From: a virus
Strand: one strand, 5' to 3'
Length of the DNA stretch: 64,000 nucleotides
IMG/VR virus record: IMGVR_UViG_3300038412_000061
Coordinates: 1 to 64,000 of that record
The position numbers and the translations under genes were made by a program. Within the stretch, counting starts at the first letter, position 1; each line of letters starts with the position of its first letter. Of the stretch, positions 5,376 through 18,199 are shown in pieces. The notes under the pieces were generated by a model. It was not told the DNA's origin. It saw only the letters and a list, made by a program, of their open reading frames with translations, and ran no database searches.

Positions 5376-5919
5376 TCAACCCTGCCTTATACGCTTGATC
5401 CTGCACCCGGCGAAGGAAAGAGGTTAAGAAGCCTCTGTCTACGGGCGGCTGTTCTTGCCCATACGGATAGTCATGGCGGCGTGGTGGGATAGGAGTGAGG
5501 CGCTTAGCCTTCTTTTTGACTCTCAGCGTTCCCGCGTCGTTCAGAACCATGAGCCCCCATCGCTCTGGGAGCTCGCCGTCCTTCACGAACGACGCATCTG
5601 ACACAACTAGATACCAATAGTCGCAATGCTTGATGAATTCAGCGCTCTTCTCGGGATCTTTTAACTCGCTCAGCCAATCAGCACGCGACACCTTGACTTC
5701 GTGTCCAGTGAATGCCAAGCCTTCTCCCCTGGAGTTGCAAGTGTCAAAGGCTATGAAATCGGCTGTTCTCTTTGAGTCCCACCCGGCGTCTGAACGCACA
5801 TGAGATGCGCAAACGTACTGTTGTACTACAGGGATTCCCCGCCATTGGGTCTTTCCCAGGGGGGAGTAACGTTGGAAAAGAGCCTCGATCACTTGAGACT
5901 CCGTATGCTTATTCGCCAC
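5353..5919 (-). CDS. MmcB-like PD-(D/E)xK nuclease-fold protein
   Basis: RTADFIA...GHEVKVSRADWLSELKDPEK...CDYWYLV...ELPERWGL; probable GTG start at 5919. Confidence 0.75.
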   Translation of the reverse strand: MANKHTESQVIEALFQRYSPLGKTQWRGIPVVQQYVCASHVRSDAGWDSKRTADFIAFDTCNSRGEGLAFTGHEVKVSRADWLSELKDPEKSAEFIKHCDYWYLVVSDASFVKDGELPERWGLMVLNDAGTLRVKKKAKRLTPIPPRRHDYPYGQEQPPVDRGFLTSFLRRVQDQAYKAGLNDRAKDE

Positions 5920-10037: not shown

Positions 10038-11222
10038 TCAGTGAGTCCCCTTGTAATTAAGGATCTGGTGAAGGACGTGGTCTATTCGAGTTAGCTCTTT
10101 CTGTCGGTCCATCACCTCTTCTATGGGCTTGTAGGCAGATGGTGACTCATCCAGGAGCTCCTCAGCGTTTCCGCTGTTCCAGGCCTTGCCCTCCATCTGC
10201 GCGTTAAGCATTTCAACGGTAAGCTCTTTTTTAGCACGTCCGCGCGAGAGCAAGCGGCCAGCGCCGTGTGAAGAAGAATTTAGAGAGGCCTCATTTCCAA
10301 GGCCGGTAGTGATGTAAGTCGCTGCACCCATGGAACCGGGTATGACTCCACGATCACCCTTGTCCGCCTTGATGGCACCCTTACGCGTTACCCATAAACG
10401 CTTGCCCCAATGGTTCTCCTGCTCAGTGAAATTATGGTGGCAGTTGATTTGTGCTTCAGAGATGACATCAGCCATTGGAAGGAAGTTGCGCACTGCTTCA
10501 TATGTCCCGCGCATCATTACTTCACGGTTCTGAAGAGCCCATGACTGAGCCCAGCGAAGGTCGTAAATGTAGTTGTCGAACAGCCTGTTCCCCTCCAAGA
10601 AGTAGGCCAAATCGGGGTCAGGCAAGGTTTCGCCACTCTGGTGCATCAACTCCTTAGCTATCTTGATGTGCTTGGTAGCCAGTTGGTTGCCAATACCGCG
10701 CGAACCAGAGTGCAGTACGATCCATACACGGTCCAACTCGTCAAGACACACTTCTACAAAGTGGTTTCCAGCTCCCAATGTTCCCATCTGCTCGGTGATA
10801 GTGTTCACCTGCTTATCGCTCAAACTTGACGGCCCCATGTAGGCAGGAACTTTTCGGGTGTGGCGCATACGATCCCAGTACGAGGCGAACTCGTGACCCT
10901 GACCAACACCAGAAGGAACCGCCTTTCTGATGAGGCTGTGGAGCGCGCTCAAATCATCAGGAAGATCGTTAGATGTGAGGTTAAGACGCATGGCTATCAT
11001 TCCGCATCCGATGTCAACGCCAACGGCGTACGGGATGATGGCACCCTCTGTTGCTATGACGGAGCCGACCGGGACCCCGTATCCTTGGTGTCCATCAGCC
11101 ATAACAGCAACTGGCTTCTGAACGAAAGGAAGCTTGGCAACGTTGGAGGCTTGCTGTACAGCTCCAGCCTCTAGGTTTGGGTCCCAGCTTAGTACGTCTG
11201 GTGTCAAAAGTTCCGGGATCAT
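10038..11222 (-). CDS. rtcB: RtcB RNA ligase
   Basis: DGHQGYG, GVDIGCGM, GTLGAGNHFVE, LHSGSRG, NCHHN, RKGA, PGSMG, SHGAGR, DESPSAYK motifs. Confidence 0.97.
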   Translation of the reverse strand: MIPELLTPDVLSWDPNLEAGAVQQASNVAKLPFVQKPVAVMADGHQGYGVPVGSVIATEGAIIPYAVGVDIGCGMIAMRLNLTSNDLPDDLSALHSLIRKAVPSGVGQGHEFASYWDRMRHTRKVPAYMGPSSLSDKQVNTITEQMGTLGAGNHFVEVCLDELDRVWIVLHSGSRGIGNQLATKHIKIAKELMHQSGETLPDPDLAYFLEGNRLFDNYIYDLRWAQSWALQNREVMMRGTYEAVRNFLPMADVISEAQINCHHNFTEQENHWGKRLWVTRKGAIKADKGDRGVIPGSMGAATYITTGLGNEASLNSSSHGAGRLLSRGRAKKELTVEMLNAQMEGKAWNSGNAEELLDESPSAYKPIEEVMDRQKELTRIDHVLHQILNYKGTH

Positions 11223-13215: not shown

Positions 13216-13242
13216 CAGAAATTTGCATAAATTGAAAATTAG

Positions 13243-13313
13243 TCCGGGCAGCACGAATCGGACATGCGGAGTCGAAGATATAAGCTTCGATTGGATAACC
13301 AATCCATACCCGG
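13243..13313 (-). tRNA. Non-canonical tRNA, anticodon TAT (Ile)
   Basis: CCGGGTA/TGCCCGG acceptor, 6-bp anticodon stem, loop CTTATAT, 5-nt D-loop, T-loop TCCGATT. Confidence 0.6.
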
Positions 13314-13314
13314 T

Positions 13315-13389
13315 TGGTCGAGGTACCCGGAGTCGAACCGAGAGCGCAAGGCTTAGAACACCTTTGGCAGTCCATCCGCCACTACCCCG
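13315..13389 (-). tRNA. Atypical tRNA-Arg(TCT), CCA encoded
   Basis: AAGGT-GTTCTAA-GCCTT anticodon arm, TTCGACT T-loop, G at positions 8 and 32. Confidence 0.7.
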
Positions 13390-13391
13390 TT

Positions 13392-13560
13392 GTAGGTCAC
13401 TTTACGGGTGACCAATCCCCCGAAGCAAGTGGTAACCAACCCTAGTCTCTTCGGCACAACTAACGTCAACCGCCATGAATATCCACTTTGGTTAGAGTGG
13501 CCCATCTGGTGTCTCCCCAGCGTTCTGTCCTCACACGGCTCAGGCGCGTTAATTGCGTTC
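13392..13560 (-). ncRNA. Candidate multi-domain pseudoknotted ncRNA (~170 nt)
   Basis: 11-bp closing helix with two G.U pairs specific to this strand, four further helices, 7-nt loop-loop complementarity; own promoter. Confidence 0.65.
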
Positions 13561-13566
13561 GAATAA

Positions 13567-13595
13567 AGTGTAGCACATGTTATAATTTGTGTCAA
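13567..13595 (-). promoter_or_regulatory. SigA-type promoter
   Basis: TTGACA-17-TACACT with TGn. Confidence 0.85.
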
Positions 13596-13599
13596 GTGC

Positions 13600-13651
13600 A
13601 AAAACAAAAAGTACCCCGGCAATGTGTTTTGACAGGGATTGCTCCGGAGTT
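13600..13651 (-). terminator. Terminator of the upstream tRNA transcript
   Basis: ACTCCGG(A)GCAAT...ATTGCCGGGGT followed by ACTTTTTGTTTTT. Confidence 0.65.
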
Positions 13652-13656
13652 TTAAG

Positions 13657-13730
13657 CTCTAGGAGATGGGGTCGAACCACCAAGTCTCTCGGTTCAGAGC
13701 CGAGTATTTTTCCGGTTAAACTATCCTAGA
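13657..13730 (-). tRNA. tRNA-Gln(CTG)
   Basis: Cloverleaf; loop CTCTGAA. Confidence 0.88.
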
Positions 13731-13748
13731 ATGTAAAAATGCAAAGCG

Positions 13749-13834
13749 CGGATAGAGTGAGATTTGAACTCACGCGGCTATGACACCCTAACGGTTTAGC
13801 AAACCGTCCCCTTAAACCACTTGGGTACCTATCC
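13749..13834 (-). tRNA. tRNA-Ser(GCT)
   Basis: Long variable arm; loop TTGCTAA. Confidence 0.92.
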
Positions 13835-13838
13835 ATTG

Positions 13839-13909
13839 CTCTGGGAACTGGACTCGAACCAATACCTTACGGGTTCAAAGCCCGCCGTCCTGCCTTAGAC
13901 TATCCCAGA
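13839..13909 (-). tRNA. tRNA-Gln(TTG)
   Basis: Cloverleaf; loop CTTTGAA. Confidence 0.92.
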
Positions 13910-14046
13910 TCGATCACTGCGTAATTCTTGATTCTTCTTCCGTGCCCTATTTCGCGTTTTAAACTTCTGTCGCGGGGACGACACCATTCGCAAGAATGGC
14001 CCTCAGGGCAAACTTTCCAAGCTTTATTTCTAACGGTCCTGCTCAA
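13900..14046 (-). CDS. 48-aa basic peptide (MSRTVRNKAWKVCPEGHSCEWCRPRDR...)
   Basis: GGAGG RBS, TTG start; stop overlaps the 5' end of tRNA-Gln(TTG). Confidence 0.5.
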   Translation of the reverse strand: MSRTVRNKAWKVCPEGHSCEWCRPRDRSLKREIGHGRRIKNYAVIDLG

Positions 14047-14188
14047 AACTCTTCCTCCACTCAACTTCTTCTGAGCGCCGTCGGATCTTATGACTAGGAG
14101 ATTCCAAGCCGTGATCCATGCAGTAACAAATTCCCCTACCGGGGATTTTGCATAAAGCGGTTTTCATCCTGCCCATCATTTTAGCCAT
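14030..14188 (-). CDS. 52-aa basic peptide (MAKMMGRMKTALCKIPGRGICYC...KIRRRSEEVEW)
   Basis: ATG shares its A with the CCA of tRNA-Leu(CAA); fills the spacer. Confidence 0.5.
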   Translation of the reverse strand: MAKMMGRMKTALCKIPGRGICYCMDHGLESPSHKIRRRSEEVEWRKSFEQDR

Positions 14189-14263
14189 GGTCCTGATCTA
14201 GGGAGTCGAACCCTAACTGTGACGCTTTTGAAACGCCTATCTCTGCCATTGGATTACATCAGG
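14188..14263 (-). tRNA. tRNA-Leu(CAA) with short variable arm, CCA encoded
   Basis: Loop TTCAAAA; ~5-nt variable region. Confidence 0.8.
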
Positions 14264-14325
14264 ATAACTCCCATCTACCCCTGCATCTCACTTAAGAAAT
14301 TTCGCATCGGGGGTAGTAGGGATAG

Positions 14326-14396
14326 AGGCGAGAACAGGATTTGAACCCGTGTAAGAGGTGTTGCAAGCCTCCACCTAACCGCTCGGACATCCCGCC
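14326..14396 (-). tRNA. tRNA-Cys(GCA)
   Basis: TTGCAAC loop, U73. Confidence 0.85.
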
Positions 14397-14411
14397 ATTG
14401 TTACTGCTTCG

Positions 14412-14493
14412 TACTCATGGGGAGACTTGAACTCCCACCCCTTTCGGGACTAGTTTCTAAAACTAGCGCGGTTGCCGATTACGCCACACGAGC
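14412..14493 (-). tRNA. tRNA-Leu(TAG)
   Basis: Long variable arm; loop TTTAGAA. Confidence 0.92.
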
Positions 14494-14506
14494 ATGTATT
14501 ACTTAG

Positions 14507-14588
14507 TTCGGAAGAGGAGACTCGAACTCCTACGCTTTTAAGCAAGGGGGTTTAAGCCCCTCGTGGCTACCGATTACACCACTTCCGA
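14507..14588 (-). tRNA. tRNA-Leu(TAA)
   Basis: Long variable arm; loop CTTAAAC. Confidence 0.92.
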
Positions 14589-14675
14589 ATAGAACAGTCC
14601 ACTCTCGGATACTGTCATCTGTCACGACCTCCGCTGTCGTTGCGTTCGGTTCATAAGCATAGCCGAATTGCTTCG

Positions 14676-14749
14676 TGGAGAGTAAGGGACTCGAACCCTT
14701 GGTATCTTCGGTGCAAGCGAAGCGCAGTTGCCGCTGTAGCCAACTCCCC
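14676..14749 (-). tRNA. tRNA-Ala(TGC)
   Basis: G3.U70; loop CTTGCAC. Confidence 0.9.
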
Positions 14750-14851
14750 ATATAAGGTACTTTTAAGTCATGCCCAGGACTGGGGCTAGCGAGTAGTCAG
14801 AGACTACCGTCAACCTCCACCAGTATGCTTTTTACTTCATCCCAAGAAGAG

Positions 14852-14924
14852 TGGAAACGGTGGGATTTGAACCCACGACCTCTAGTATGCCATACTAGCG
14901 CACTACCAACTGTGCTACATCCCC
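14852..14924 (-). tRNA. tRNA-Ala(GGC)
   Basis: G3.U70; loop ATGGCAT. Confidence 0.93.
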
Positions 14925-15000
14925 ATGTTCTCGTCTCTCCGAGATGTCACCACAGTTCGCTGCGGTTGCAAAGTAGAAGCCTCTAGAAGCCGCTACTTCG

Positions 15001-15072
15001 TGGTTCCCGAACGGTTCGAACGTTCTCCGCAAGGTTTTCAAGCTCGCGTGCCTCCAGGTACACCAGAGAACC
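15001..15072 (-). tRNA. tRNA-Phe(GAA)
   Basis: Loop TTGAAAA. Confidence 0.85.
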
Positions 15073-15154
15073 AAGTGAAGCAGCGGGTGGTTATCCCAAT
15101 TGGCAACTCAGTTACGCAGGCAACGACTCTGCCACCGTGCCCTAAACTACTTCG

Positions 15155-15228
15155 TACAGACTGAGGGAGTCGAACCCCCGAACCTTCTCCTTGTAAAAGA
15201 GACACTCTGGCCACTGAGTTAAGTCTGC
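15155..15228 (-). tRNA. tRNA-Val(TAC)
   Basis: Loop TTTACAA. Confidence 0.9.
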
Positions 15229-15276
15229 ATGTGTCGGTCTTTCCCGACTGTATAGAGAGGCGCTAGCCACCCATCG

Positions 15277-15349
15277 TCTCCCCACACCGACTCGAACGGT
15301 GATCGCTGGTTTCGTAGACCAGAATTTTAATCCATTAAACTACAAGGAG
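15277..15349 (-). tRNA. tRNA-Arg(ACG)
   Basis: Loop CTACGAA. Confidence 0.9.
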
Positions 15350-15414
15350 AAGCGGGCCTTTTAGTGACATGCCCAGGTACACCATTAAATGGGTACTGCG
15401 GGGAAGATCCCCAG

Positions 15415-15488
15415 TTGTGCAAGAGGGATTCGAACCCACGACCGACCGCGTATCAGACGGTTGCTCTACCAGACCGAGCTACTGCACA
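15415..15488 (-). tRNA. tRNA-Ile(GAT)
   Basis: Loop CTGATAC. Confidence 0.9.
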
Positions 15489-15502
15489 TCGTTTACTGCT
15501 AG

Positions 15503-15578
15503 TAGCGGCGGCGGGATTTGAACCCGCGATTCCTTGGTTATGAGCCAAGTGCCGTAGACCAGACTGGGCCACACCGCA
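15503..15578 (-). tRNA. tRNA-Met(CAT), initiator-like
   Basis: Loop CTCATAA; 1:72 mismatch. Confidence 0.88.
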
Positions 15579-15640
15579 TCGAACTACCGGCTTCTCCCCG
15601 GCAGGCTGTTCGGGCCTTAACGCGGGGGAGAAGCACTAGG

Positions 15641-15712
15641 GGTGAGCGAGGAGAATCGAACTCCCGCGACTTGGGTCACATCCAAGCGGTCTACCACTAA
15701 CCTACATCCACC
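15641..15712 (-). tRNA. tRNA-His(GTG)
   Basis: G-1:C73; loop ATGTGAC. Confidence 0.9.
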
Positions 15713-15803
15713 ATGTCTTCACTGGGCGGAACCTCACCCCCAGCGTTACCATCCCCGCTAACCCCCGGATGGCTTCCATACTGTTGGAACGAACTTCTTT
15801 CCA

Positions 15804-15832
15804 AGTGTAGCATAACTCCTGCCACTTGTCAA
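15804..15832 (-). promoter_or_regulatory. SigA-type promoter inside the tRNA array
   Basis: TTGACA-17-TACACT with TGn. Confidence 0.85.
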
Positions 15833-15843
15833 ATCTTTTTTCG

Positions 15844-15916
15844 CACGGGCGGAGAGAATCGAACTCCCAGTGGCAGGTTTTGGAGACCTGCTGACATTCC
15901 AATATGCCACACCCAT
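15844..15916 (-). tRNA. tRNA-Trp(CCA)
   Basis: Loop CTCCAAA, G73. Confidence 0.88.
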
Positions 15917-15984
15917 ATAGTCCCGTCTCTCCAGGATGCCACGTTTCTTGGGTCGATCAACTCCCAGGGAAAAACGTCCCCTCG

Positions 15985-16056
15985 TTGACCCCGTGGGAGT
16001 CGAACCCACATGAAACAGATTAAGAGTCTGCCGCATAACCGCTCTGCCAGAGATCA
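15985..16056 (-). tRNA. tRNA-Lys(CTT)
   Basis: Loop CTCTTAA. Confidence 0.9.
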
Positions 16057-16067
16057 ATGTTACTGCG

Positions 16068-16145
16068 TCGTAGATGAGGGAATCGAACCCCCTTGCCGAA
16101 GCCAGTGGTTTACAGCCACCTGCCGCCCATGCGAGCCTATCTACG
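16068..16145 (-). tRNA. tRNA-Tyr(GTA), C1:G72
   Basis: Loop CTGTAAA; variable arm GCTTCGGC. Confidence 0.85.
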
Positions 16146-16156
16146 TTGTTACTACG

Positions 16157-16229
16157 CTCCAGTTAATGGGTTCGAACCATTCTATCACGGTTAACAGCCG
16201 CGCACATTCGCCAAGATTGTTAAACTGGA
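16157..16229 (-). tRNA. tRNA-Asn(GTT)
   Basis: Loop CTGTTAA, G73. Confidence 0.88.
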
Positions 16230-16242
16230 ATGCTTTACTACG

Positions 16243-16314
16243 TTCTCCTAGGGAATTCTGCCATCCCGACCCTGGGCTTAAAAGGCCCCTGCTCTTCTTC
16301 TGAGCTACAGGAGA
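16243..16314 (-). tRNA. tRNA-Lys(TTT) with non-standard T-loop
   Basis: Loop CTTTTAA; T-loop GGCAGAA. Confidence 0.8.
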
Positions 16315-16325
16315 TCGATACTTCT

Positions 16326-16402
16326 TGGTCTAGTAGGAGGGATTTGAACCCCCAGCCTGATGGCCCCAAACCACCCGCTCTACCAAGTTGAGCCACTACT
16401 AG
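16326..16402 (-). tRNA. tRNA-Pro(TGG), CCA encoded
   Basis: Loop TTTGGGG. Confidence 0.92.
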
Positions 16403-16413
16403 ATGATACTGCG

Positions 16414-16516
16414 TACTTCTTACATGGGGGGCGCTCTGCCCACTTAAGCTACCCCAGGACTTATGCCTCCGAAGAGAATGCCCGTGGACGGGATTCGAAC
16501 CCGCACCTCCCCCTCG
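16414..16516 (-). ncRNA. Circularly permuted tRNA-like RNA (YrlA Y-RNA-type module)
   Basis: T-arm GCGGG-TTCGAAT-CCCGT precedes an acceptor-like helix capped by CTC-TTCG-GAG, then D-arm TAGCTTAAGTGGGCAGAGC; ends pair GGGGG/CCCCC. Confidence 0.8.
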
Positions 16517-16590
16517 CGCCAGTAGCGGGTTTCGATCCCAGCTGCCTTTCGATTGACAATCGAATGCTCTCCCGAGTGAGCTATACCGGC
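16517..16590 (-). tRNA. tRNA-Asp(GTC)
   Basis: Loop TTGTCAA, G73. Confidence 0.88.
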
Positions 16591-17087
16591 TTGTGTAATT
16601 CTAGGTAACCTTTTATTTCTTTGGAGTAAGTTTCAAACCACCCCAATCTCGTATTGCAATAAAGACAAAGTAGTCCTCTAACTTCCCCTGTCGCATGATC
16701 GTGATCAACGGCGAAGTGACTGTTCTTTCTTCCTGAACCTCTTTTGCATATAGAACATTTACCACCCTGCAACTCCAAAAGAGCATCATATCTTTCCGTA
16801 GTGATTCCTGAAGTGGCCTTCAGATATGAAGATCTAGTCTGTTTTTTAAGTCTTTCGTTGCTACAAGTATTACAATATTTCTGAGCGGTACCGGTAGCTT
16901 GAAATTCTTTACTGCATTCCGCGCACTTTATCACAGGAAGTTTTCTAGTAACGACGGTCCCCTTGCCGGAGCACACGTTAGAGCAAAACCTTCCAGTCCC
17001 ACTTTTGACTTGATAGGGATGACGGTAAAAAACTACCTCACAACCATCAAGCTCACACACAACATCGATGCCAGATCGTTTTCTCAT
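16581..17087 (-). CDS. Endonuclease VII-family HNH nuclease with N-terminal Cys-rich repeats (probable homing endonuclease)
   Basis: QGGKCSIC...AVDHDHATGEVRGLLCLYCNTRLG; low GC; inserted among tRNAs. Confidence 0.9.
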   Translation of the reverse strand: MRKRSGIDVVCELDGCEVVFYRHPYQVKSGTGRFCSNVCSGKGTVVTRKLPVIKCAECSKEFQATGTAQKYCNTCSNERLKKQTRSSYLKATSGITTERYDALLELQGGKCSICKRGSGRKNSHFAVDHDHATGEVRGLLCLYCNTRLGWFETYSKEIKGYLELHKPV

Positions 17088-17093
17088 ACTTCT

Positions 17094-17122
17094 ATGGTAT
17101 CACAAGAACATTTAGAAGTCAA
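17094..17122 (-). promoter_or_regulatory. SigA-type promoter, leaderless HNH transcript
   Basis: TTGACT-17-TACCAT with TGn, ATG 6 nt downstream. Confidence 0.7.
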
Positions 17123-17141
17123 GACTTTACTTCTTACTACG

Positions 17142-17225
17142 CGGAGCCCGGAGGTACTGCCCCCCTGGGATTGCTCCCCGATTCGCTTTCAAGGCGAGCC
17201 CCCGACTATCCGAGGTTCAGACTCC
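17142..17225 (-). tRNA. tRNA-Ser(TGA) with non-standard T-loop
   Basis: Loop CTTGAAA; long variable arm; T-loop GCAGTAC. Confidence 0.78.
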
Positions 17226-17291
17226 ATTGTTGGAGCGTCGGGCTGATTAGACCCGTTAAAAGCGACTTCTTATAATTCGCTTAACGCTTCG

Positions 17292-17362
17292 TACTGTTAC
17301 GGGGTCTCGATCCCCGTCTGCCGCCCTGAGAAAGCGGAGTGCTACCATCACACCCTAACAGC
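17292..17362 (-). tRNA. tRNA-Glu(CTC)
   Basis: Loop TTCTCAG. Confidence 0.87.
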
Positions 17363-17458
17363 AAGTAAAAGTGGAACGGCTGACTAGGCCTAAGGCTAGA
17401 ACGACCTCTCGGGCAAAATCGTCAATCTCGCCGTAGGAACATCTATCCAACCACTTCG

Positions 17459-17531
17459 CAGTCTGACGGAGACTCGAACTCCGGCTACGAGGGTGAAAAC
17501 CTCGCGTCCTAGGCCACTAGACGACCAGACC
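17459..17531 (-). tRNA. tRNA-Glu(TTC)
   Basis: Loop TTTTCAC. Confidence 0.93.
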
Positions 17532-17546
17532 ATGTTTTACTACTAG

Positions 17547-17618
17547 AGTCTCAGGCGGGGTACGATCCCGCGACCTCCTACTTGGCAAGCAGGCGTTCTT
17601 CCGCTGAACTACTAAGAC
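17547..17618 (-). tRNA. tRNA-Gly(GCC)
   Basis: Loop TTGCCAA, U73. Confidence 0.88.
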
Positions 17619-17630
17619 ATTGTTACTTCG

Positions 17631-17701
17631 ACCGTCATGCCGGATTCGAACCGGCGCCGCCTACTTGGAAGGAAGGAAGTCTACCACTAACCTAACAACG
17701 G
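17631..17701 (-). tRNA. tRNA-Gly(TCC)
   Basis: Loop CTTCCAA, U73. Confidence 0.88.
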
Positions 17702-17713
17702 ATTGTTACTGCG

Positions 17714-17785
17714 TGCCGAAATGAGGGAACGATCCTCATCCTCTTCGTTACCAACGAAGCGTGCTTCCTTTATCACTATTACGGC
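17714..17785 (-). tRNA. tRNA-Thr(GGT)
   Basis: Loop TTGGTAA. Confidence 0.85.
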
Positions 17786-17853
17786 ATGTGAAGTGTTCGG
17801 GTTAAGTCATTCCCGATGAAGATGCGCTGCCTTGGACCGCCCTCACCACCTCG

Positions 17854-17924
17854 TTCCCCCGGACGGATTCGAACCGCCGCATCTGAGTTACGAACTCAGA
17901 GTTCTCCCGCTAAACTACAAGGGA
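17854..17924 (-). tRNA. tRNA-Thr(CGT)
   Basis: Loop TTCGTAA. Confidence 0.88.
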
Positions 17925-17929
17925 ATGCG

Positions 17930-18002
17930 TGCCGCTAACAGGATTCGAACCCATGACCTGACGCTTACAAGGCGCCTGCTCTACCACCTGAGCTACAACG
18001 GC
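17930..18002 (-). tRNA. tRNA-Thr(TGT)
   Basis: Loop CTTGTAA. Confidence 0.93.
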
Positions 18003-18011
18003 ATGTTTACT

Positions 18012-18040
18012 ATTGTACTGCAAATTCTTTAGGATGTCAA
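18012..18040 (-). promoter_or_regulatory. SigA-type promoter of the tRNA array
   Basis: TTGACA-17-TACAAT. Confidence 0.85.
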
Positions 18041-18043
18041 GCA

Positions 18044-18111
18044 GAAAGAAAAAAAGAGCGCAACCCCAATAAACACTTTCCCTCCCGAAAGTACTTACCA
18101 GAGCTGCGCTC
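18044..18111 (-). terminator. Long hairpin terminator
   Basis: GAGCGCAGCTCTGGTAAGTACTTTC / GAAAGTGTTTATTGGGGTTGCGCTC followed by a T run. Confidence 0.8.
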
Positions 18112-18122
18112 CTCGAACCGCT

Positions 18123-18199
18123 TGGTGGCGGAGACTCGGAATCGAACCGAGGACATCTGGTTATGAGCCAGATCGGAGCACCAGCCCCAGCCTCCCGCT
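18123..18199 (-). tRNA. Atypical tRNA with CAT anticodon, CCA encoded
   Basis: Loop CTCATAA, TTCGATT T-loop; bulged and mismatched acceptor stem. Confidence 0.75.

Follow-up and report, generated by a model that had tools for sequence, protein, structure and literature searches.

Structured inserts within a shared trailer and leader frame in the tRNA gene array of an uncultured tailed phage

The window analyzed here is a stretch of 64,000 nucleotides (nt), the first 64 kb of the 95,949-bp IMG/VR virus record IMGVR_UViG_3300038412_000061, which is rated complete by CheckV. The record encodes terminase, portal, major head and tail-sheath proteins and thus belongs to a tailed phage with a contractile tail. 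The phage is uncultured, and the window DNA recurs in a mine-drainage metagenome. An array of tRNA genes is located on the minus strand of the window, and the subject of the present analysis is the spacers between these genes, many of which are long, fold as RNA and carry the same end motifs as the shortest ones.

13242-18198, minus strand: tRNA array with 31 tRNAs found by ARAGORN, one extra tRNA found by Rfam and one Ser-like cloverleaf

The total is ~33 tRNA genes when the two tRNA or tRNA-like genes that ARAGORN passed over are counted. In the window, 12 spacers measure 1-17 nt and 15 measure 47-131 nt, and three gaps are longer still (266, 278 and 700 nt); the spacers of the short class are ~11 nt long. 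The original prediction, which was made from the sequence of the window, stated that many spacers are under 20 nt and that about ten long ones form small structured RNAs. Its coordinates are correct, and so is the observation on short spacers. The class of 47-131 nt is also real, but several of its members are tRNAs, promoters or a gene. The long class is therefore mixed, i.e. it contains two missed tRNAs, one permuted tRNA mimic, promoter and terminator spacers, and ~10 hairpin modules.

Related arrays were fetched from IMG/VR and the JGI metagenomes by means of the gene adjacent to the array, in which a nucleoside deoxyribosyltransferase-like domain is fused to a deoxynucleoside monophosphate (dNMP) kinase. 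Nine distinct loci have the tRNA order in common (L009, L010, L012, L013/L014, L017/L018, L020, L024 and L092/L093), and orthologous tRNAs are 70-83% identical between genomes. A collection of annotated phages gave tRNA-sized matches only and no close relatives. Over eight related arrays the spacer lengths are bimodal, where 60 spacers are shorter than 20 nt, 81 are of 60-119 nt and just 7 are of 20-49 nt. Such ARAGORN-based lists slightly overcount the long spacers because ARAGORN misses tRNAs; in the spacers of relatives Rfam shows tRNAs that ARAGORN missed at L024:7928-7998 and at L092:4197-4268, 5428-5498 and 5724-5795. The other long spacers show no tRNA match, either in Rfam at E-values up to 10 or with ARAGORN thresholds lowered to 85%.

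The long spacers are structured as a class. Folding was scored as z against dinucleotide shuffles, and 88 spacers of 40-130 nt from seven arrays have a mean z of -2.18, with 50% of them below -2, compared with -0.17 for length-matched coding controls (Mann-Whitney p = 5e-16). This agrees with the original prediction that the long spacers are structured. In the same seven arrays the spacers fold more stably as the sense strand than as the antisense strand (Wilcoxon p = 6e-6). The paired ends that had been described for several spacers are likewise found in excess. Terminal stems of at least 6 bp are present in 30 of 109 spacers, where re-partnering of the ends gives 11.3 ± 2.9 (maximum 22 in 2000 trials), and stems of at least 7 bp are present in 18 of 109 compared with 4.7 ± 2.0 when 5′ and 3′ ends are swapped. 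The closing helix pairs the very first bases of a spacer with the bases just before the last four. Re-partnering retains the end motifs and breaks their co-variation, thus the excess shows that the two ends of each spacer have evolved to match each other. The structure is under selection on the transcribed strand.

Short and long spacers have their ends in common. The short spacers read roughly GAAGUAACAU, and the long ones start with GAAGU(A/G) and end with (A)CAU as the short ones do. Among 170 spacers of at least 9 nt, position -3 relative to the following tRNA is C in 75%, position -2 is A in 79% and position -1 is U in 82%. Bacterial RNase P favours U at -1 and A at -4 of the leader, and the 3′ motif of the spacers therefore looks like an optimised RNase P leader. 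Judged from these end sequences, a long spacer looks like a short spacer with a structured insert placed between trailer and leader. With the end frame shared by both classes, whatever excises the tRNAs would also free the inserts, and the earlier proposal that enzymes of tRNA processing would release them gains support from the frame.

A second recurrent feature lies at the 3′ end of many inserts. This is a leader hairpin whose G+C stem has 4-5 bp and whose loop reads GRNAGA (GAGAGA, GAAAGA or GAUAGA); the hairpin ends 3-6 nt before the 5′ end of the tRNA. It is found 16 times in six arrays and at nine kinds of junction; the stems differ in sequence and stay complementary. The window has three leader hairpins, at 15921-15936, 15233-15248 and 14929-14944, and each ends exactly 4 nt before its tRNA. 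When both strands of the 64 kb are scanned, the pattern gives three matches outside of the array and one inside tRNA-Asn. A related hairpin, AUCC-GAGAG-UGGA, is held in a covarying outer stem; in the window, L010 and L024 it stands before tRNA-Leu(UAA). In L020 the same module precedes tRNA-Ala(UGC), i.e. it is in the Ala(GGC)>Ala(UGC) junction (the sign > denotes the spacer between two successive tRNAs) and sits one tRNA earlier than in the other three. Thus modules or tRNA cassettes shuffle within the frame.

The boxB element of phage lambda has a 5-bp stem and a purine-rich GNRA-like loop and is bound by N protein. The leader hairpin may resemble boxB in its G+C stem and purine-rich loop. 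It differs from boxB in having a hexaloop, in its many copies and in its position 3-6 nt ahead of the tRNAs, and neither an N-like protein nor a nut context was identified here.

The hairpin modules and structured spacers of the window are as follows.

17786-17852, minus strand: Thr(CGU)>Thr(GGU) hairpin module, ends paired over 6 bp, 3′ tail ACAU

17363-17457, minus strand: Glu(UUC)>Glu(CUC) hairpin module, 7-bp terminal stem, z -2.6 / -2.4

17226-17290, minus strand: three-way-junction module after tRNA-Glu(CUC), z -2.3

15579-15638, minus strand: His>Met long hairpin, z -3.0

15350-15413, minus strand: Ile>Arg(ACG) three-hairpin spacer, with 41 nt shared with L009 at 93% identity and 22 nt shared with L020 without a difference

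15229-15275, minus strand: Arg>Val two-hairpin spacer, with leader hairpin 15233-15248 (GAAAGA loop) 4 nt before tRNA-Val

15073-15153, minus strand: Val>Phe module, 8-bp terminal stem, tail ACUU, z -1.4 to -1.8

14925-14999, minus strand: Phe>Ala(GGC) three-hairpin module, z -2.9 to -3.6, with leader hairpin 14929-14944 (GAGAGA loop)

14750-14850, minus strand: Ala(GGC)>Ala(UGC) spacer, z about -0.1, local 7-bp hairpin only

14589-14674, minus strand: Ala(UGC)>Leu(UAA) spacer, z about 0, with 3′ module GUGACA ... AUCC-GAGAG-UGGA in a covarying outer stem

14264-14324, minus strand: Cys>Leu(CAA) long irregular hairpin, z -4.0 to -4.6, no counterpart in relatives

Six of these had been put forward as examples of structure. 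The folds described at 14264-14322, 15585-15637 and 17371-17454 hold, the second with covariation in L009 and the third with its 7-bp end pairing, and the three-way junction at 17230-17290 is present as described. The segment 15075-15145 is closed by the 8-bp terminal stem of its spacer, but the z-value of that spacer is just -1.4 to -1.8. The segment 14781-14825 fares worst, as its spacer folds no better than chance as a whole and displays the local 7-bp hairpin only. Thus the array, the lengths and the folding of the class stand, but two examples are weak and some spacers are tRNAs, promoters or a gene.

Comparison with relatives shows that most modules come and go at single junctions. The Thr(CGU)>Thr(GGU) junction is just 12-14 nt in relatives. 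The Glu(UUC)>Glu(CUC) junction has a spacer of 79-106 nt in three of the four relatives that have the junction, and these spacers are unalignable. The place that matches 17226-17290 is occupied in L009 by a hairpin of 58 nt whose terminal stem is 9 bp long. In L013, the closest relative, the Val>Phe spacer has a 12-bp terminal stem and an interior unlike that of the window. Across genomes a single junction switches between 10-14 nt and 60-115 nt, and most long spacers are unalignable, where the identity at shared junctions is 0.4-0.6 compared with ~0.5 for shuffled partners.

Other modules are retained. The His>Met hairpin is found in L009 with 8 of its 15 pairs changed on both sides, and the loop motif CCGAAC is common to both. 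Compensatory changes are also seen in Asn>Tyr, Thr>Gly and the tRNA mimic that is described below. The last hairpin of Ile>Arg, which has an A-rich loop (CUCUAAAA in L009, L024 and L092, with variants in the window and L020), stands before tRNA-Arg in five genomes. The Ala(GGC)>Ala(UGC) spacer has two segments conserved in L009 (36 nt at 97% and 27 nt at 93%); parts of Ile>Arg and Ala>Ala are thus 93-100% identical in L009 or L020. The 3′ module of Ala(UGC)>Leu(UAA) is the AUCC-GAGAG-UGGA module that recurs in L010 and L024 and, at another junction, in L020.

The Asn>Tyr spacer, which is 10 nt in the window, is 80 nt in L010 and L020 and 99% identical between them. In L024 it displays compensatory changes in the first hairpin and ends in a GAGAGA leader hairpin, and it thus adds to the conserved spacer RNAs of this lineage. 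It was also observed that the array of L010, L020, L024 and L092 is on the strand opposite the dNMP-kinase fusion gene, whereas that of the window and L009 is on the strand of this gene. The array is inverted as a block between these relatives and the window and L009.

The most strongly conserved spacer of the window is the following.

15917-15983, minus strand: Lys(CUU)>Trp spacer, z +0.5, no stable predicted fold, with leader hairpin 15921-15936 (GAGAGA loop)

The core of the Lys>Trp spacer is identical at 62 of 62 positions in the window and L009, and the flanking tRNAs carry many substitutions. A 20-mer of the spacer was found only in L009 in IMG/VR and had zero matches in 185,579 species genomes, and the 67-nt spacer had zero matches in 50,697 phage records.

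This element directly follows a tRNA and lacks a simple nested fold, which is what might be expected if self-cleaving ribozymes, HDV-like (hepatitis delta virus-like) theta ribozymes or others, excised the tRNA 3′ ends. Theta ribozymes are structured non-tRNA RNAs that sit immediately 3′ of phage tRNA genes and have been implicated in maturation (PMC10879173), and the spacers share that position with them. However, no Rfam ribozyme match is found at E-values up to 10. The HDV-like fold is a nested double pseudoknot, with G1 at the tRNA 3′ end and a catalytic C in J4/2. A permissive descriptor of this fold fits no spacer of the window, and over all arrays it fits three real spacers compared with four shuffled ones. 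When Lys>Trp was threaded by hand, no P1 starting with G-U was obtained where the spacer meets the tRNA. Self-cleavage is thus the least probable of the explanations considered.

The junction between tRNA-Asp and tRNA-Pro holds an element of a different type.

16427-16513, minus strand: circularly permuted tRNA mimic between tRNA-Asp and tRNA-Pro, without anticodon loop

The mimic begins 2 nt after tRNA-Asp, directly with the first strand of a 5-bp closing stem. Next come 4 nt of variable region and a canonical T arm, then an acceptor stem of 7 bp that is sealed by a loop of 22 nt, and finally a D arm and the other strand of the closing stem. Each of the six related genomes in which this junction is covered has one or two units there, and the structural parse gives nine units in six genomes. 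In an alignment of the nine units, 97.3% of the cells are paired and 14 of 22 pairs have changed on both sides; when the partner is shifted by 1-3 columns, the paired fraction falls to 38-50%. A covariance model built from the units, termed R1, scores true units at 61-87 bits and tandem-tRNA junctions at no more than 47 bits. By this model the window contains one unit, and the lower matches, which were considered as extra copies, were rejected as tandem-tRNA junctions, a false positive flagged by Chen et al. (2014, PMC4201824).

The mimic resembles the YrlA type of Y RNA in its permuted T arm, sealed acceptor stem and D arm and in having the RNA ends in place of the anticodon stem (PMC4201824). 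A permuted tRNA-like domain as in YrlA is thus present at 16427-16513, and the Rfam YrlA model (RF02553) gives a full-length match. The score is 24.4 bits, however, compared with a gathering threshold of 69, and the outer helices of the model fall on tRNA-Asp and tRNA-Pro, with mismatches. The Ro60-binding motif GNCGAAN0-1G, which would be expected near the 5′ end (PMC4201824), is absent from the unit. A YrlA RNA would also be expected within about 4 kb of a Ro60/TROVE gene and on its strand, but none of the 95,949-bp genome, the complete relative L009 and two partial relatives contains a TROVE/Ro60 gene. The mimic is thus comparable to the tRNA-like half of YrlA but does not qualify as a member of that family. 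The mimic also differs from YrlA in a closing stem of only 4-6 bp, in being embedded in a tRNA array and in its tandem duplicate in three relatives. The YrlA RNA of M. smegmatis has a 7-bp acceptor stem, is cleaved by RNase P and receives CCA (PMC4201824). By analogy, it is a reasonable prediction that the mimic would be cleaved by RNase P and have CCA added.

A larger RNA is found in the array of one relative. L092:1415-1755 on the minus strand, and its twin L093, contain a full-length class A RNase P RNA (RF00010, 203.9 bits, E-value = 1.7e-64), which is on the tRNA strand in a 591-nt gap between tRNA-Gln(UUG) and tRNA-Gln(CUG). The genome of the window itself has no RNase P RNA. The presence of this RNA in the L092 array means that the array has been used in this lineage to express a large non-tRNA RNA, and it ties the array directly to RNase P processing.

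In a mine-drainage metatranscriptome run (X2), which belongs to another study than the probable source run X1, contigs are 100% identical to eight stretches of the array that span tRNAs and spacers, with parts of the array uncovered; these contigs reflect presence in an RNA library only, not levels or true ends, and carry-over of DNA is possible. One X2 contig of 504 nt joins position 16427 to position 14850 and skips 1576 nt, and this joint is absent from the DNA run. The joint consists of the last base of the closing stem of the mimic and the first base after tRNA-Ala(GGC). The same contig stops at 14675, the 3′ end of tRNA-Ala(UGC), and carries three unmatched letters beyond it. The joint may be a ligation or template-switch product of real RNA ends, or a deletion variant, and gives a weak hint at most.

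Some of the long spacers are accounted for by signals of transcription. A consensus scan shows four sigma-70-like promoters on the tRNA strand (18012-18040, 17094-17122, 15804-15832 and 13567-13595), and there is one strong terminator-like hairpin on this strand at 18060-18107. The array region is thus divided into several transcription units and is not a single one. Three long spacers carry promoters or a terminator, among them the following two.

18003-18122, minus strand: Met>Thr spacer, z -3.8, with terminator-like hairpin 18060-18107 followed by promoter TTGACA-17-TACAAT at 18012-18040

15712-15842, minus strand: Trp>His spacer, with promoter TTGACA-17-TACACT at 15804-15832 followed by leader hairpins

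The four promoter-like sites and the terminator lie in spacers, which would be expected if the long spacers were DNA or transcription signals, i.e. promoters, terminators and pause sites, and not RNA modules. Their count is not above the shuffled expectation for the region (5 compared with 3.8), they explain only three or four spacers, the hairpin modules have no U tracts, and the bias of folding toward the sense strand points to RNA. This explanation is very unlikely, although somewhat less so than self-cleavage.

Other long spacers contain genes.

16243-16314, minus strand: tRNA-Lys(UUU) with an unusual T loop, Rfam score 37.8 bits compared with a gathering score of 29, missed by ARAGORN

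17142-17225, minus strand: tRNA-Ser(UGA)-like cloverleaf with five arms, a long variable arm and an aberrant T loop, missed by ARAGORN and Rfam

16581-17087, minus strand: endonuclease VII / HNH-type gene of 168 amino acids (aa) inserted in the array, with its own promoter at 17094-17122

The tRNA-Lys(UUU) at 16243-16314 lies in what had counted as the spacer 16230-16325, and L009 has a tRNA-Lys(UUU) at the matching position. The cloverleaf at 17142-17225 is orthologous to the tRNA-Ser(UGA) of L009 and aligns with the tRNA-Ser of relatives; it is either a divergent tRNA or a pseudogene. The endonuclease VII gene and the cloverleaf together lie in the 700-nt gap. Another gap, that of 278 nt (13910-14187, minus strand), separates tRNA-Leu(CAA) from tRNA-Gln(UUG) and contains two short Cys/His-rich open reading frames, 14030-14188 and 13900-14064. 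The latter shows a sub-threshold match (15.6 bits) to an HNH endonuclease domain, and this may be the remnant of a homing endonuclease gene.

These genes raise the question of neutral debris, i.e. that the inserts are decayed tRNAs, scars of homing endonucleases or slippage products which have no function and are tolerated only if they fold on themselves. Two spacers do turn out to be tRNA or tRNA-like genes, the 278-nt gap holds a weak HNH remnant, and the presence or absence of mostly unalignable inserts from junction to junction is as expected of debris. Endonuclease genes are found in the arrays, and SegB-type endonucleases rearrange the tRNA region of T-even phages (PMC13096335). However, decayed tRNAs fail as a general explanation, as Rfam searches at E-values up to 10 and lowered ARAGORN thresholds add one tRNA and the other spacers show no weak tRNA signal. 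The length mode of 60-69 nt is less than that of a tRNA with two short spacers. The leader hairpin keeps its distance from the tRNA from copy to copy and its stems covary, compensatory changes are found in the tRNA mimic as well as in His>Met, Asn>Tyr and Thr>Gly, and some elements are conserved well above the level of the tRNAs. Debris as the origin of the modules is therefore considered unlikely.

The reading that is favoured here, with about an even chance of being correct, is that the ~10 hairpin modules are mainly cis-acting, self-insulating spacer cassettes. The array would consist of polycistronic pre-tRNA operons assembled from such cassettes, with a frame at every junction made of a 3′ trailer starting GAAGUA and a 5′ leader ending ACAU. 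The ~11-nt junctions would be these two motifs alone, and the long junctions would have a self-contained structured insert between them. The folding of a 50-100-nt insert upon itself, often by pairing of its first bases with the bases just before the ACAU leader, would prevent it from disturbing the folding or cutting of the neighbouring tRNAs. Many modules would also present the GRNAGA hairpin with a set spacing of 3-6 nt to the RNase P site. We infer the cutting enzymes and the fate of the excised RNAs as follows. Cleavage by RNase P in front of the downstream tRNA and maturation of the 3′ end of the upstream one would jointly free the hairpins as by-products. The quick gain, loss and replacement of inserts would be due, probably, to recombination at the shared frame and to the homing-endonuclease genes in the arrays. 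The tRNA mimic and the Lys>Trp, Ile>Arg and His>Met elements are probably RNAs in their own right.

Several observations weigh against the proposal of cis-acting cassettes. Spacers of 11 nt work at many junctions, thus inserts are not needed for processing, which weakens the case for a purely cis benefit. Closing stems that leave a 3′ tail of no more than 4 nt should protect the RNA from 3′ exonucleases, which would favour accumulation and a role in trans. The conserved loop motifs GRNAGA, CCGAAC and CUCUAAAA suggest partners that recognize specific sequences. The invariant core of Lys>Trp is a further difficulty, as an insulator need not be invariant, and two spacers that are 99-100% identical in L010 and L020 likewise exceed the conservation of the tRNAs. 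A wider possibility, which is unlikely, is that the array is a general chassis for RNA expression in which the fixed frame, often with the GRNAGA hairpin, allows tRNA-processing enzymes of host or phage to excise interchangeable cassettes. These would include tRNAs, tRNA mimics without anticodon, the RNase P RNA of one relative and a fast-evolving set of stem-closed, exonuclease-resistant small RNAs that act in trans on host factors, e.g. as decoys for tRNA-directed defences.

Such a role in trans leads to the explanation that had been offered first, here taken to mean that the array is a production line of trans-acting small RNAs (decoys, antitoxin mimics or sponges). These would be released by tRNA processing, be stabilised by their stems and evolve rapidly as host defences and phage compete. 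In favour of it, the modules have structure, a frame and closing stems, and fast turnover with structure retained fits diversifying selection. Non-tRNA RNAs are expected to be expressed from the array, given the tRNA mimic and the RNase P RNA of L092, and the RNAC and RNAD of phage T4 are made from its tRNA region (PMC3014915, PMC9697503). An RtcB RNA ligase gene at 10038-11222, which is downstream of the array and on its strand, hints at conflict over tRNA cleavage.

The searches give no identity to such RNAs. In an Rfam scan of the spacers only tRNA reaches its threshold, and no ToxI (type III antitoxin), CRISPR-repeat or ribozyme match appears at E-values up to 10; thus no resemblance to an antitoxin, a CRISPR repeat or a known small-RNA family was seen. 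No tandem or interspersed arrays of direct repeats are present, the only repeat being one of 10 nt in 2.2 copies, and the repeat families otherwise are all tRNA arms. When 14 spacers were compared with the rest of the phage genome, sense and antisense, the longest matches were 11-14 nt, which is the shuffled expectation. The Lys>Trp element is unmatched in the phage collection and the 185,579 species genomes, and the spacers at 14589-14674 and 14750-14850 fold no better than shuffles. As part of the original prediction, a library of antitoxin mimics or defence decoys is not borne out, as no match to an Rfam family, a repeat or the phage genome was found. The reading of the array as a processing scaffold stands to the extent that it can deliver structured non-tRNA RNAs, as the frame, the mimic and the L092 RNase P RNA indicate. 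A production line of trans-acting RNAs is, on balance, rather unlikely, and is placed only slightly ahead of debris.

Two further observations concern the maturation of the tRNAs. An encoded CCA is absent from 26 of the 30 tRNAs counted, and a homologue of the CCA-adding enzyme (PolyA_pol family) is located at genome positions 75360-75752, outside of the window and within a frame of 482 aa. This homologue, RtcB and the mostly CCA-less tRNA genes together suggest a kit for tRNA maturation and repair that is supplied by the phage.

Non-tRNA RNAs in phage tRNA clusters are already known, since T4 RNAC and RNAD (the species 1 and 2 RNAs) are small non-tRNA RNAs that lie among the phage tRNA genes and are co-transcribed with them; their role is still unknown (PMC3014915, PMC9697503). 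As in T4, non-tRNA RNA is encoded inside the cluster of the window on the tRNA strand. T4 has two RNAs of about 120-140 nt, whereas the array described here has ~10 shorter, predicted RNA modules with a shared trailer and leader frame, a recurrent leader hairpin and rapid turnover, and no sequence relation to the T4 RNAs was found. The GOLLD and ROOL RNAs are likewise structured non-coding RNAs that are habitually located beside phage tRNA clusters (PMC12286853). Each of these is one RNA of 500-800 nt that assembles into multimeric cages, whereas the modules are many, are 45-100 nt in length and have no Rfam match.

A bacterial parallel also exists for the release of functional RNA from a tRNA operon. 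The 3′ external transcribed spacer of the E. coli glyW-cysT-leuZ operon sponges small RNAs (reviewed in PMC8166272). It is a by-product of tRNA-operon processing that has its own function, and in this it is similar to the inserts. It is a single bacterial spacer that pairs with known small RNAs, whereas no partner was found here in the phage genome. In the papers searched, no description was found of the shared frame, of the fixed-distance GRNAGA leader hairpin or of self-closing inserts that turn over junction by junction. Nor did they describe a tRNA mimic without Ro60 as a cassette of an array, or a phage tRNA array that contains an RNase P RNA.

The usual annotation of a phage tRNA array consists of tRNAs and empty gaps. 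In the array described here the gaps follow a grammar, i.e. a processing frame, a position-locked leader hairpin, self-closing inserts, a conserved mimic and, in a relative, an RNase P RNA. If the modules act in cis, this grammar is a natural rule set by which long multi-tRNA transcripts are processed cleanly, and it would be useful for the design of synthetic tRNA arrays. If some of the modules are stable and act in trans, the tRNA arrays of phages would harbour an overlooked store of small RNAs directed against host tRNA biology and defence, with a link to T4 RNAC and RNAD, a puzzle now 50 years old.

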